Positions 58,901 to 64,000 of a stretch of 64,000 nucleotides of DNA are shown here, piece after piece; positions within the stretch are counted from its first letter, which is position 1, and each line of letters starts with the position of its first letter. Source of the DNA: Escherichia coli (GTDB lineage Bacteria > Pseudomonadota > Gammaproteobacteria > Enterobacterales > Enterobacteriaceae); the NCBI RefSeq assembly GCF_030384885.1, contig NZ_CP128613.1; one strand, 5' to 3'. A program made the position numbers.

Positions 58901-61900
58901 GGCTTTCATCGTTATGGGCCATTTCATTTTGCGTTGCGCTGCCTTCTGGGTTTGCAGTATTAAACGTATTAATACCTGTGATACATGTCGGCACATATGT
59001 ATCCATGTTGTTTTGCTTCATAATGTTAGACAATTTTTCCAAAACAAGATCGTTAATTTCTCTATCTCTTTATATTTTAGTGTTAGCTCTAGCTTGTTTC
59101 AGTGATGACATCATAAAGCTACTCATTATTGCACCAGTAGCAATATCATCAGTGATTTTTATAGTAAAAACCAAAAGCCAAAAAAATCTGATCATACTAG
59201 TTGCAACTATATTTGCATATGTTGCATCAAAAATTATGACCATGTACGCAAGAGCTCATAACTGGTACATTTTGCCAGGCGTTCCAGATCCAACATTTGT
59301 TGCATTTGATGATATCCTGAATAATTTATACTTATTCGTAAAAGGATTCCTCCTATACAGTGGAGCTTTCTTCTTTGGCAAGCCACCTTCTGATATTACA
59401 GCGCTTATTTCTGTTTTTTGTTTTGTTGTAATGATTTTACTTCTTATATTAGTTGCAATGTCAGTAAAGGAAATATTCAAAACCTCCATGATCAATATGG
59501 CTATATGTATAGCTTGTATTATAATGATACCAGCATACCTTGCAAGTAACCGTCCAATAGATGAATGGACTATAAGATATATCGTTCCATTTTTTATACT
59601 AGCACCTGTTGTTATTGGCAGATCTAACAACTCCAGAGGGTGGAAATTCATCGCATTAGGGGTTGTTACAACATTTATTCTCTTTTGTTCTATTTATATG
59701 CATGAAAAAAAAGACAATTCTAATGATATTATAAATCAGATAAAACACACTGTAAGGCAGAATAACCTCACAAACGGGTATGCATCTTTCTGGTTTGCTT
59801 CATCAGCAAGTATAGATGGAGACATATCAATTGCTCCGATTGATGTAAACCGAGGTTTGAATATACTTGCATGCAATAAATGGTTGTCAAAAAACTATTG
59901 GTATGAGCGCGGAGGAAATTTCATAATTACAGATGACGAGGTTATGAGAAATATAACAATTAAAGAGATTGGTAATCCATCAAAGGTTATTGACGTCGGA
60001 GATAAGAAGATTTTTGTTTACGATAAAAACATTACATTCAACTGCAATTAATTAAATAAGCGGGTGCTAAGCACCCGCATTATCATACACTTGTACCATA
60101 CGCCCTCTTCCATTCAGATGATACTGTGTCCATATTGGAAGACCTAGCGTTGTATCGTAGTATTCAACTGGCACAATTGAAGAGACAGGCCTCTGCGCAG
60201 TTGTACCATATAACAAAGATGTCAACGGAGAAGTGCAGGCCGCAAACTGACTGATGATGAAAAAACGCGGCTGAATGCGGTACTCGACTACATCGACGCA
60301 GTGACAGCAGTTGATGCTGACGCTGCGCCTGATATCAACTGGCCCGCTCCCCCGGTTGCGTAGGCCACTCTATTTCGGGTGCCGCTGAGGTATCAACACG
60401 GTTCAGCAGTACCCTGTATTTTTTCCACGCCAGCAGTAACGCCTGTTCATCGTCTGTCACCATTTCCAAATCAACGGCATCCTGCAGCGGTGCTATTGCG
60501 TTATTTGCTACGGTCAGTAGTGCTGATTTCTGCAGCTCAGCCTCCGCAACTAACGCGTTGTGAGAGCGTTCTGGGGGAGGTGGCACGGTAAATACTCCGT
60601 CTGAATATGACCAACCGATGCCAGCATCGCCGTTTAACGGAACTAAATTACCAGCCTCTGGTTTCCATTCAGAAATTCCGTCCCAGATAATGACATTAAT
60701 AACAACGTTATTATCAACAACTGCATAGATATCATTCATTTACATGTACTCCCGAATTACCAGCACGCCATTAGCTCCGTGCCCGCCACGTCCTGACGTG
60801 TGTGAATAGCTATTATCGTATGCACCCCCGCCGCCGGAGCCAGAGCAAACTCCAGGATTACCGCTCAGTTGCCCAGCGCGGCCGCCGCCACCCCAATAGC
60901 TCGATGCCCCATTGCCTACTAATAGCGCCTGGCCCGCCTGTCCGTCTGAACCGTCTCCGCCTTGTTCAGTTTTATAACCGCCAGAGCCTGAGCCACCGCG
61001 CCCGCCAGCGGTATTTGTAGCGCCGCCCCATTGCCCACCCTGGCCGCCGAGCGCAGTTAATGTCATGAACGAACTATGACCGCCATTATTTCCAGACCCT
61101 GGCCCATTGGCACCACTACCACCGCTACCAATTGTCACTGTATAGGTCCCTGGCCCGGCATCGTTGTCTGTCGCATAAATAGTGGCAAAAACAGTACCTC
61201 CGGCTCCTCCGCCAGCCCCTGAAAATGTCTGATTTGCGTTCTCCGCGTTACATCCACCGCCACCGCCGCCCCCCGCAGTCAGAATAACGTCAATTCGTTT
61301 TACGTCAGCTGGCCACGTATATGAACCCGACGATGAAAAAACGACAGTTTTGCTGTAACGCCCCGAGCCATCTCCCAAACCAAGGTTTTCGAGAGCCGTT
61401 TTCACCGTGCCATCCGATTTGATATCACCAAACGGATTCTTGCGGCTTAACAGCAGCGCACGAAGCGCTGTAAGCAGCTGGTCATGCTGCCCCTTCTCCA
61501 GGCTGGCACCGGATGCCTCCACCACGCTGCAAAGCTCCTCCTGCAACATGTCAAAGTAGTCATCATCCAGATCGGTGGCAGGCGTGCCGGTCTGGGGGTT
61601 ACCACGGGTAAAACCGTTCTTACCCGCGCCGAACTTATCCTTCTGCGCGGTTTTCGTGTCTATACGATGCATGAATTACTCCGGATATTTAAAAATTACG
61701 TAGGTATGCGACGGGCAGAGTTTGTTAAGCACACACTCGACAACGGTGTCGCCCCAGATACGCAGTGCGGAATCACAGGGATCGCCACATGTCATCCAGG
61801 TGGTGTTGGTGGCAGCTGGCATGTTGACCTGCCAGTAATACCGCCATTCCGGCGCATTCACCGCGTCAGTACAGACCGATGAGCAGGTGAACGTGCTTTT

Positions 61901-64000
61901 GTCGTATCGCGTGATGTTGGCATCTGGTCTGCCCAGGGCAGCAAGCTGTGCAAGGTAAAAATCCTCATTGATGCCGCCCGCCAGATTAACCTTCGCATCC
62001 AGCCGTTGCTGACGCTGGCGAAGGGTCTGCGTTCCCGCCGGAATACATTCATCCGGCAGGCCGCACAGACGCTCCCAGCGGTTTATCAGTTCAGTGGTGG
62101 TGCGCGGATCCAGCTCCCGCATCAGGGCATCCGCACGCTGATGAACGCGGGTTCCAGACGCCGCGCGGTTGCAGATCGCTGCCAAGGCTAACACCGGAAA
62201 GCGTTTTGATCATGGTGACCAGGTCGCTGGCGTTACCATAAAGGCGTTTCCCGGTACGCCACATTTTCTGCACCTGCTCAACGAAATTTTTGCCTGACGA
62301 TGGCGGCGGCAGAAGTACCGAGATATCCCCCTGCAACAGCCTGGCGGCATCCGATACGGCAGAATCCACCACTTTCATCGCATCAGAAACATACCCCAGC
62401 ATTGTGCTGGCATTACCGACGACGTCGTTCTGCACAAAATCCGCCACGCCATCGATACTGAAACCTCTGAAACTGTCACTGATGCAGTCATCCAGTGCAG
62501 AACAGGATGACATCAGCGTCTGCGCCGTCGCCGCACCTGATGTGGGGTAAGAGAGTTCTCCCGCTTCGACAAACTTCAGGTCAAAGCGGACAATACGCCC
62601 TTCATTCTTCGATGTGCTGACCCGAACTTCCCCGTCAACACAGACTTTCAGCTCACCGTATGTCGGATGGACAAGCGTGCCGGGACCGGGTTTATTCAGC
62701 GCGTCAATCAGGCGATCGCGCTGGTCAAAGCAGTCATCTCCCACCACATAAGCCGTGATGGACGGGCGGAAAGTGATTTTCCCCAGGTCTTCGGTAACCT
62801 TTATATAAGAAACAATGGATATTACTGCTACAGGGACCCAAGGACGGGTAAAGAGTTCGGATTAGGCAGAGACAGGAGGATAGCAATTACTGAAGCAATA
62901 CAGGCAAACATTGAGTTATTTTCAGGACACAAACACAAGCCTCTGACAGCGAGAATCAACAGTGATAATTCTGTTACGTTACATTCATGGCTTGATCGCT
63001 ACGAAAAAATCCTCGCCAGCAGAGGAATCAAGCAGAAGACACTTATAAATTACATGAGCAAAATTAAAGCAATAAGGAGGGGGCTACCTGATGTTCCACT
63101 TGAAGACATCACCACAAAAGAAATTGCAGCAATGCTCAATGGATACATAGACGAGGGCAAGGCGGCGTCAGCAAAGTTAATCAGATCAACACTGAGCGAT
63201 GCATTCCGAGAGGCAATAGCTGAAGGCCATATAACAACAAACCCGGTCGCTGCCACTCGCGCAGCAAAATCAGAGGTAAGGAGATCAAGACTTACGGCTG
63301 ACGAATACCTGAAAATTTATCAAGCAGCAGAATCATCACCATGTTGGCTTAGACTTGCAATGGAACTGGCTGTTGTTACCGGGCAGCGAGTTGGTGATTT
63401 ATGCGAAATGAAGTGGTCTGATATCGTAGATGGATATCTTTATGTCGAGCAAAGCAAAACAGGCGTAAAAATTGCCATCCCAACAGCATTGCATGTTGAT
63501 GCTCTCGGAATATCAATGAAGGAAACACTTGATAAATGCAAAGAGATTCTTGGCGGAGAAACCATAATTGCATCTACTCGTCGCGAACCGCTTTCATCCG
63601 GCACAGTATCAAGGTATTTTATGCGCGCACGAAAAGCATCAGGTCTTTCCTTCGAAGGGGATCCGCCTACCTTTCACGAGTTGCGCAGTTTGTCTGCAAG
63701 ACTCTATGAGAAGCAGATAAGCGATAAGTTTGCTCAACATCTTCTCGGGCATAAGTCGGACACCATGGCATCACAGTATCGTGATGACAGAGGCAGGGAG
63801 TGGGACAAAATTGAAATCAAATAATGATTTTATTTTGACTGATAGTGACCTGTTCGTTGCAACAAATTGATAAGCAATGCTTTTTTATAATGCCAACTTA
63901 GTATAAAAAAGCAGGCTTCAACGGATTCATTTTTCTATTTCATAGCCCGGAGCAACCTGTGAACACATTTTCAGTTTCCCGTCTGGCGCTGGCATTGGCT

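Follow-up and report, generated by a model that had tools for sequence, protein, structure and literature searches.

Overlapping ORFs as probable N and ymfQ pseudogene fragments in a doubly deleted SfV/e14-like prophage remnant at the lambda attachment site of Escherichia coli

Two overlapping open reading frames (ORFs) with Mu-like tail-gene similarity in E. coli contig NZ_CP128613.1 raise the question of whether they are one frameshifted gene, a functional overlapping pair, or the debris of a deletion. In the window (the whole stretch of DNA analyzed, 64,000 nucleotides long, to which all positions refer), the upstream and downstream ORFs (Table 1) share 104 nt (62091-62194) and occupy different frames (62747 mod 3 = 2; 62194 mod 3 = 1), exactly where a previous sequence-only reading had placed an out-of-frame overlap of about 100 bp. 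Comparison with intact relatives makes it very probable that both are non-functional pseudogene halves on either side of a deletion scar.

Table 1. Features of the prophage remnant, in order of position in the window
Feature	Coordinates	Strand	Remarks
attL core GCTTTTTTATACTAA (lambda att core)	56952..56966	minus	left remnant end
gtrA	57310-57672	plus	intact ORF
gtrB	57669-58583	plus	intact ORF, PF00535
gtrC-position membrane protein, 488 aa	58585-60051	plus	intact ORF
Tail fibre assembly gene (tfa)	60335-60739	minus	intact ORF downstream of ymfQ fragment
Glycine-rich tail fibre gene (stf)	60740-61672	minus	intact ORF downstream of ymfQ fragment
ymfQ 3' fragment (Mu gp48-like baseplate wedge protein BW3)	61676..62153	minus	codons 37-194 and stop
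Downstream ORF	61676..62194	minus	172 aa, GTG start
Upstream ORF	62091..62747	minus	218 aa, GTG start
Deletion 1 junction	62152..62153		2-bp TT microhomology common to both parental sequences; HSPs overlap 2 nt
Internal N gene fragment (Mu gp43-like tube initiator / DNA circularization protein)	62154..62796	minus	collinear alignment, protein and profile matches
Deletion 2 junction	62795..62796		N codon 42 fused to int codon 14; TA microhomology
Lambda-type tyrosine integrase gene without first ~14 codons (int)	62797..63824	plus	PF00589; PF09003 profile 13-74 of 74
attR core GCTTTTTTATACTAA	63898..63912	minus	right remnant end, adjoins ybhC

Each ORF is a composite of two genes. The 218-aa ORF starts at an internal valine codon (GTG) of N, Val59, continues through N residue 256, and ends with 20 residues that are an out-of-frame reading of ymfQ DNA, whereas the 172-aa ORF begins with 14 codons of N-derived DNA in the other frame and then follows YmfQ from residue 37 to residue 194. 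BLASTP against the intact homologues gave E values of 2e-144 and 5e-125, respectively, and at the level of sequence both family matches lie far above chance. Alignment to intact clusters, the check proposed by the sequence-only reading, left neither homologue covered in full (N residues 59-256 of 442 and YmfQ residues 37-194 of 194); its description of the upstream ORF as having a Mu gpN-like N terminus and a non-matching C-terminal tail was right about the tail but not about the N terminus, the match being internal to N and taking up most of the ORF, not its start alone. The exact 218-aa ORF is on record in public sequence; no public record was found for the exact 172-aa ORF.

The N fragment comprises nt 126-768 of 1329, starting at the third base of codon 42 and stopping after two bases of codon 257, so that both ends of the gene are absent. 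The 218-aa ORF is 96-97% identical to N of SfV/e14-like phages over residues 59-256 of 442 in the E. coli C4 prophage and 64-261 of 447 in SfV, and it matches the Mu chain named "DNA circularization protein N" in PDB 9ki1 with an E value of 0.0025 (Mu N residues 85-219 of 495). The PF07157 (DNA_circ_N) match, with an E value of 5e-11, covers only profile positions 55-88 of 88; the N-terminal domain of the family is incomplete, N DNA being kept from codon 42/43 on, and full-length collinearity (about 440-495 aa including the C-terminal helix-rich domain) is lacking. In intact relatives N is flanked by the tape-measure gene and the hub gene gp44/P, but in the window its neighbors are the truncated int, which is antisense, and the ymfQ fragment. 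Judged from these matches, the N piece is a fragment of a PF07157 family member and not an intact member. E. coli records that contain the stretch number 1,098, from 1,090 genomes, and the best allele match is 99.4%.

On the other side of the scar, ymfQ has lost its first 107 nt (36 codons). The 172-aa ORF is 97% identical to C4 YmfQ (residues 28/37-194 of 194) and 96% identical to SfV orf20; it matches PF10076 (Phage_Mu_Gp48, DUF2313) over profile positions 29-149 of 150 with an E value of 1e-22 and 80.9 bits, above the gathering cutoff of 37.4, and the Mu chain "Baseplate protein gp48" in PDB 9ki1 with an E value of 5.5e-8. A complete coding sequence with a native start coupled to gp47/J is not present, J being wholly deleted and the GTG lying in N-derived DNA. 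A scan of positions 60000-64000 for promoters and terminators returned none above shuffled expectation. Because truncation at both ends is combined with the loss of four essential partners, the fragments are probably neither expressed nor functional.

The nature of the scar was established with E. coli C4, strain 2013C-4282, and phage SfV as intact references, in all of which the gene order is N-P-V-gp46-J-YmfQ (annotated in SfV as similar to Mu N, P, and gp45-48). By blastn, the window up to 62153 is collinear with the C4 locus (L003) up to 22154, and from 62152 onward it is collinear with L003 from 25905; the parental flanks are ...CACGGGTT/AATGAC and ...CCGTTTT/CCAGAC, with the slash at the junction. 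The missing 3,752 bp hold the last 561 nt of N, four entire genes (gp44/P, gp45/V, gp46, and gp47/J), and the start of ymfQ, and the earlier suggestion of further internal decay of the tail module is borne out by this absence relative to intact clusters. We propose that an illegitimate deletion at the TT microhomology joined N codon 257 to ymfQ codon 36 and eliminated hub, spike, wedge gp46, and wedge gp47/J; each leftover frame would then enter the DNA of the other gene briefly until it met a stop, which would produce the overlap. In the intact phage, N and ymfQ are in one frame and 3,752 mod 3 = 2; the 104-nt overlap is therefore out of frame. It should be noted that divergence from the two closest prophages at the lambda attB is 2.2% for the N fragment, measured against their N allele, but only ~0.3% on the ymfQ-gtr side; therefore the exact ancestor lies outside the collection and a mosaic boundary falls inside the deleted segment.

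The scar lies within a remnant flanked by two exact att-core matches, against 0.01 expected. The remnant is 6,946 bp long, as compared with 40,061 bp for the C4 prophage, and the arithmetic of size is exact: 40,061 - 6,946 = 33,115 = 3,752 + 29,363. Complete head, tail, lysis, replication, and immunity modules are missing between the att sites, where gtrABC, tfa, stf, and three gene fragments are left. The genes at 57310..60051 constitute an O-antigen glucosylation cassette, with the same genes annotated in C4 and 2013C-4282; the cassette adjoins one att site and int, although 5'-truncated, lies at the other end. The tail fibre assembly and tail fibre genes (60335..61672) match PF02413 and PF21722. 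The ancestor would have been an SfV/e14-like temperate myophage integrated at the lambda attB between ybhB and ybhC, with an HK97-type head, a Mu-type contractile tail, gtrABC adjoining attP, and a lambda-type Int. Another 29,363 bp would have gone in a second deletion at a TA microhomology, which reached from N codon 42 to int codon 14 and took with it the tail, head, lysis, replication, and immunity genes; from nt 42 on, the window int is 99.9% identical to that of C4, and, with no stop as far upstream as an ATG at 62667 in the antisense N DNA, it is part of a chimeric ORF of 385 aa. The 3,752-bp deletion probably preceded the 29,363-bp deletion. The intact att cores now enclose 6.9 kb, in which gtrABC, tfa, and stf are the sole full-length ORFs. 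The remnant may persist through gtrABC or by neutrality.

Among the other explanations for the junction, the one that survives best, although it is quite improbable, is illegitimate recombination between two SfV/e14-like phages, co-resident or superinfecting (for example, in a tandem dilysogen), in place of a deletion within one prophage. Identity to the C4 and 2013C-4282 prophages is 99.7-99.9% on the ymfQ side but only 97.7-97.8% on the N side, which is 99.4% identical to N alleles of other prophages, so that divergence jumps at the junction. However, these phages are highly mosaic, and an allele switch within the deleted 3.75 kb accounts for the jump just as well; furthermore, in gene order, orientation, and both att flanks the remnant corresponds to one prophage, and the two deletions add up exactly to the difference in size. 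It is less probable still that the overlap is functional, either through programmed ribosomal frameshifting of the tail-chaperone G/GT kind or because the N fragment has been domesticated as a dominant-negative anti-phage decoy. Programmed frameshifts do occur in phage tail operons, but every intact relative examined has N and YmfQ as distinct genes with 3.75 kb between them, and the overlap region is merely two parental DNAs in the wrong frame. For the decoy, it can be said that the unrelated thrW remnant of FDAARGOS_1250 has a near-identical N segment (from codon 43) beside a ymfQ fragment, with a ribosome-binding site and an ATG supplied in frame ahead of it by ydaT, and that N43-130 is kept in two further remnants. 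In the window N frame, on the other hand, the first start codon is Val59, and neither a ribosome-binding site nor a promoter signal above chance is present; truncated forms of N are rare, accounting for no more than 11 of the 1,099 records with N. Junctions that keep N1-42 and lose the rest are also common, which points to a breakpoint at the DNA level and not to selection for protein.

Internal deletion was one of two options in the sequence-only reading, and the switch in collinearity upholds it; the other, a simple frameshift, fails. A point indel or sequencing error that split one long tail gene has next to no probability and is counted as already refuted: overlapping out-of-frame ORFs are its usual signature and true 1-nt frameshift variants of N exist elsewhere (P0018, P0020), but the two ORFs come from two gene families, four genes and 3.75 kb apart in intact phages, and at the junction the alignment jumps cleanly from one reference coordinate to another that is not adjacent. 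A contig that falsely joins two prophage copies is equally hard to credit, for although several related prophages per E. coli genome are frequent (1 to 7 matching places, median 2), neither k-mer nor overlap assemblers can be led into a false join by a 2-bp overlap, and the identical structure, at 99.9-100% identity, is present in four independent public draft or SRA assemblies from different samples and is therefore not an assembly artifact. Among complete RefSeq E. coli genomes, no record spans 61400-63000 across the int junction.

An unexpected side observation concerns where such breaks occur. The N codon 42/43 breakpoint (CCCTATACCGAAG) is the site of at least 14 independent junctions in a zone of ~9 nt, with different partners and including other genomes; the partners are int, ydaT, terL (three positions), a replication-region HTH gene, tape measure, Rz, the tail-terminator region, gp46, J, and tail fibre, and either side may be the one retained. 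Every such junction seen at the DNA level has 1-7 nt of microhomology, and each of the five TACC(C)GA sites in N falls at a breakpoint. The site is intact in 120 of 120 viral contigs; a search of IMG/VR and JGI metagenomes for truncated junctions, with a pattern excluding the intact context, returned a single SNP variant and otherwise nothing. Reuse of the 5' breakpoint of the N fragment in many remnants suggests that the deletion process is not entirely random. A tentative proposal, which we consider unlikely to be correct, is that the local sequence makes N codon 42/43 a hot spot for breaks in SfV/e14-like prophages and that the end point is not random. A nick or break with a preference for the site would explain the clustering, and a candidate nicking enzyme is the HNH endonuclease that SfV/e14-like phages encode beside their terminase genes; relatives of this prophage endonuclease, which is WP_001135206.1 in C4 and orf53 in SfV, nick AC^CGR. 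During replication or abortive induction, such a nick might become a one-ended break, to be repaired by joining through microhomology.

Several other sources of breakage at this position were considered. Pseudo-cos cleavage at N codon 43 was rejected, the cos of SfI/SfV, TGCCCGCCCC (PMC3636060; also the ends of the SfV record), being dissimilar to the site. There is no Chi site within N that might confer protection, and the inverted and direct repeats in N are weak, none being convincing. By sequence inspection alone, lambda Int secondary-att sites, Pin/Gin crossover sites, Type II/III restriction sites, and Dcm/Vsr do not fit the junction positions.

The locus is ordinary prophage decay, of a kind already known, and the identification has annotation value only: the two ORFs are to be labeled as N and ymfQ pseudogene fragments and the locus as a 6.9-kb doubly deleted SfV/e14-like remnant at the lambda attB. 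It offers a clean case of a 40-kb prophage shrunk by a few large microhomology deletions with its cargo genes surviving. If deletion end points do cluster at a few short sites, N codon 42/43 foremost among them, prophage decay would be non-random and a specific DNA-breaking activity would be implied; were the hot-spot proposal true, decay would be partly self-inflicted and predictable.

The closest known relatives are the orf15-orf20 tail/baseplate module of SfV (NC_003444) and the C4 prophage (NZ_CP010121), to which the window pieces are 96-99% identical in DNA and protein and with which they share stf, tfa, and gtrA-gtrB-gtrC by att. The C4 prophage also agrees with the remnant in attachment site and int, whereas SfV itself integrates at thrW with a different integrase. 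Relative to both, the window lacks 33.1 kb through its two deletions, N is cut at both ends and ymfQ at its 5' end, and P, V, gp46, and J are absent. With strain 2013C-4282 the identity is 99.1% over 49 kb, and therefore the two remnants are not recent sisters; close kinship was rejected. In Mu, the proteins from gp43 (N) to gp48 belong to the same families (PF07157, PF10076) and follow the same gene order as the SfV/e14-like module, with gp43 as tube initiator, gp44 as hub, gp45 as spike, and gp46/47/48 as wedge (PMC11915804). The similarity to Mu is distant, as the E values given above indicate, and the host phage in the window is a lambdoid cos phage, not a transposable one, and the genes are fragments. 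The cryptic prophage e14 of E. coli K-12 (ymfQ, stfP, tfaP) carries the same family names as the window (YmfQ and a StfP-like fibre N terminus) and is also a decayed myophage tail module; its chromosomal site is icd. The N'-ymfQ' pair of FDAARGOS_1250 (I6J80_RS00545/RS00550), annotated by PGAP as incomplete pseudogenes, is 97% identical to the window in DNA, but it arose through its own 3,892-bp deletion with other end points, and its ydaT junction has 5-7 nt of microhomology; common ancestry of the two pairs was rejected on the basis of the thrW locus, the 97% identity, and the difference in both junction partners. Further N::gp46, N::J, and N::gp48 deletion chimeras are numerous in public assemblies.

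The two overlapping open reading frames (ORFs) in the phage remnant are almost certainly the scar of a deletion. The 218-aa ORF matches PF07157 (DNA_circ_N; E 5e-11) and, in the phage Mu virion structure 9ki1, the chain "DNA circularization protein N" (E 0.0025), and the 172-aa ORF matches PF10076 (Phage_Mu_Gp48; E 1e-22) and the chain "Baseplate protein gp48" (E 5.5e-8); judged from sequence, a chance origin is excluded for both. They have 104 nt in common (62091-62194) in different frames, as the sequence-only reading had claimed. BLASTP alignment of the 218-aa product with intact N (96-97% identity) extends only over residues 59-256 of 442 in the protein of E. 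coli C4 and, for the homologue of Shigella phage SfV, over residues 64-261 of 447. The Mu gpN-like N terminus that had been attributed to this ORF is therefore not that of N, whereas the nonmatching C-terminal tail is real and consists of 20 codons of ymfQ DNA. The 172-aa product is 96-97% identical to YmfQ in an alignment that starts at residue 28, true homology beginning at residue 37. As both genes are pseudogenes, neither extends over the full length of a family member, and the right label for the pieces is "remnant of" N or ymfQ, not "member of."

The remnant is at the E. coli attB-lambda locus, which forms the right end of the window; E. coli C4 has a complete 40-kb prophage at the identical site with identical flanks. 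The late region of the C4 prophage runs tape measure, N, P (hub), V (spike), gp46, J/gp47, YmfQ, fibre, tfa, gtrABC, and the gtrA, gtrB, gtrC-position, tfa, and fibre ORFs of the window have the C4 lengths. In DNA alignments the window is collinear up to 62153 with the C4 locus up to 22154, and from 62152 onward with the same locus from 25905, the two blocks overlapping by the dinucleotide TT. Relative to C4, 3,752 bp are absent, comprising the final 561 nt of N, four entire genes (P, V, gp46, and J), and the initial 107 nt of ymfQ, which bears out the earlier proposal of an internal deletion of tail genes. Because N and ymfQ share a frame in the intact phage and 3,752 mod 3 is 2, the fusion is out of frame. 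A stop ends the N frame after its 20 codons of ymfQ DNA, the ymfQ frame extends backward through 14 open codons of N DNA to a GTG start, and these two extensions account fully for the overlap. At the other end, N homology stops at 62796 (codon 42/43), and from 62795 there is 99.9% identity to the C4 integrase gene, beginning at its nt 42, with TA common to both sides. This second deletion removed 29,363 bp (C4 coordinates). It cut 125 nt from the 5' end of N and the opening ~14 codons from int, and took with them xis and the tail, head, terminase, lysis, Q, replication, immunity, and early-left genes. From core to core the remnant measures 6,946 bp versus 40,061 bp in C4, and since the difference of 33,115 bp is exactly 3,752 + 29,363, two deletions account for the whole structure.

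Features of the window and breakpoints in N. L-numbers are other E. coli prophage-remnant loci; P-numbers are protein records with N junctions.
Feature	Position	Strand	Remark
bioDCFB-bioA-ybhB	before left att core		left flank of remnant
Lambda att core, exact	56952-56966		
gtrA, gtrB, 488-aa gtrC-position gene	between left att core and tail-fibre genes (488-aa gene, 58585-60051)	+	
Tail-fibre assembly gene, glycine-rich tail-fibre gene, two fragments	between gtr genes and integrase gene (310-aa fibre ORF, 60740-61672)	-	
Downstream ORF, 172 aa	61676..62194	-	ORF listing
Upstream ORF, 218 aa	62091..62747	-	ORF listing
Lambda-type integrase gene	before right att core	+	
Chimeric int ORF, 385 aa	62667-63824	+	
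Second exact att core	63898-63912		then ybhC
dinG-rhlE islet	22466-26452		
yvcK-uvrB island	44155-48588		
L002	N codon 42/43		joined to ydaT; DNA level
L014, L015, L016	N codon 42/43		joined to terL, three positions; DNA level
L017	N codon 42/43		joined to replication-region HTH gene; DNA level
L142	N codon 42/43		joined to Rz-like lysis gene; DNA level
L143	<=1 nt from the other six		tail-terminator region; DNA level
P0049/P0050	N codon 42/43		"|TEDLGK" boundary after tape-measure fragment; protein level
L140, L141, P0132, P0135, P0139	N codon 42/43		N1-42/43 retained, 3' end joined to gp46, J, tail fibre, another sequence; protein level
Smaller cluster	N codon 35		four partners, plus GPEC1176
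Smaller clusters	N codons 80/85; 129-135; 170; 192; 290		

The truncated int frame is open to an ATG at 62667 in antisense N DNA; the resulting chimeric ORF, predicted by gene callers in sister assemblies, begins with 43 foreign residues, continues as Int from about residue 15, and has a clipped arm-binding domain (profile 13-74 of 74). The gtrC-position (serotype-specific glucosyltransferase position) product is a multi-pass membrane protein with zero matches in Pfam and NCBIfam and is "hypothetical" in relatives; in strain 2013C-4282 the start of its gene is shifted by a 1-nt indel. The 310-aa tail-fibre ORF appears chimeric, and PGAP annotates its C4 equivalent as two genes, a pseudogene for the N terminus of StfP and a gene for a glycine-rich-domain protein. 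An opposite-strand "tail fiber assembly protein" fragment, annotated at the position equivalent to 60236-60364, is possibly the relic of an invertible fibre segment. Elsewhere in the window, a ~4.6-kb island between yvcK and uvrB carries a divergent gene pair. One gene, on the minus strand, encodes a SopA/NleL-like HECT-type E3 ligase effector of 765 aa that contains pentapeptide repeats; the 550-aa product of the other matches nothing in Pfam or NCBIfam. Of 5,426 complete E. coli genomes, only 24 have the whole island, and its sequence in 2013C-4282 is 100% identical. A second islet of like layout is situated between dinG and rhlE. Its minus-strand gene encodes a "type III effector" of 670 aa with 22% identity to the 765-aa protein's C-terminal half (E 1e-24), and the product of the divergent gene, a hypothetical protein of 561 aa, is only faintly similar to the 550-aa protein (E 5e-4 over 62 aa).

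Microhomology at the two deletion junctions is only 2 bp each, and IS elements and long repeats are absent from both, features which indicate that both were probably made by illegitimate, microhomology-mediated joining. The N and ymfQ fragments are regarded as inert because they have lost their native starts and four essential partner genes and have no promoter-like signal above shuffled expectation. Against the prophages of C4 and 2013C-4282, divergence is 2.2% in the N fragment (relative to their N allele) versus ~0.3% in the adjacent ymfQ-to-gtr DNA; the best matches of the fragment (99.4%) are N genes in other prophages. This jump in divergence is most simply explained by mosaicism, with an allele boundary within the deleted segment; a less likely reading of the same difference is that recombination between two related phages made the junction.

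The whole two-deletion arrangement is absent from complete RefSeq E. coli genomes. Gene calls in four or more independent draft or SRA assemblies include exactly this 218-aa product, and the DNA of these assemblies is 99.9-100% identical to the window, both junctions included. Strain 2013C-4282, at the same attB-lambda site, has N through YmfQ intact and an IS3-family element (L004, 17674-19297) between N and an int truncated in another way. UID2309220013 (L001, 9755-10295) has two different internal deletions, of 1,022 and 2,187 bp, with P and J fragments remaining between N and ymfQ, and its prophage flanks differ, ybhB/ybhC not being nearby. At thrW in FDAARGOS_1250 there is an N'-ymfQ' pair of independent origin, labeled by PGAP as incomplete pseudogenes. 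Among the matches listed for the ORF in the protein database there are many more chimeras (e.g. N::gp46, N::J, N::fibre) and two in-frame N::YmfQ fusions with junctions different from that in the window. Internal deletions of the tail module are therefore common, and the further decay of this module that the sequence-only reading proposed is of a kind seen also in other strains; the N'/ymfQ' pair is ordinary prophage decay.

Other E. coli prophage remnants have 14 or more independent junctions, with a variety of partners, at the N-side end of the second deletion (62795-62796). At the DNA level, six further loci lack N homology upstream of codon 42/43, each with a different partner, and the zone serves as either the 5' or the 3' end of retained N. 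Every DNA-level junction has 1-7 nt of microhomology within CTATACCGA, so that the hot spot is a zone of ~9 nt, not a single bond. Truncated N is rare in complete genomes (no more than 11 of the 1,099 records with N), and the codon 42/43 site is intact in 120 of 120 IMG/VR contigs examined.

In a sample that is possibly biased, its protein-level junctions being among the matches listed, 24 of 63 N junction events are within 3 nt of the five TACC(C)GA sites versus 4.9 expected, an enrichment raised in part by the microhomology that partners at the N43 site have in common with that site. All five sites carry breakpoints; with distinct positions only, the excess is modest (11/38), and the motif is absent from the codon 129-135 cluster. 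An agnostic k-mer test of 31 distinct breakpoints found GGTA/TACC at 12 (2.35 expected) and ATACC at 7 (0.66 expected). SfV/e14-like phages have an HNH endonuclease gene beside the terminase genes, and terminase-adjacent HNH relatives are site-specific nickases, e.g. at AC^CGR, with star sites ACCC, ACTG, and ATCG (PMC3592412, PMC4027164). By analogy, an HNH nick is a candidate that could seed one-ended breaks in N, but the HK97-type enzyme is reported to be nonspecific (PMC3592412, PMC4027164), and ACCG sites far outnumber the hot spots. Chi protection and strong local repeats are ruled out as causes of the breakpoint zone, as is a pseudo-cos at N43, the SfI/SfV cos being TGCCCGCCCC.

Phage SfV has the N-to-YmfQ module of C4, and its record likens orf15-orf20 to Mu N, P, gp45, gp46, gp47, and gp48. 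According to a cryo-EM study of Mu, gp43/N is the tube initiator, gp44 the hub, gp45 the spike, and gp46, gp47, and gp48 are wedge proteins, the fibre being docked by gp48 (PMC11915804). The families (Mu gp43/N-like and gp48/YmfQ-like), the phage type (SfV/e14-like), and the process are all already known, and the recurrent breakpoint in N is the sole element that is perhaps new.
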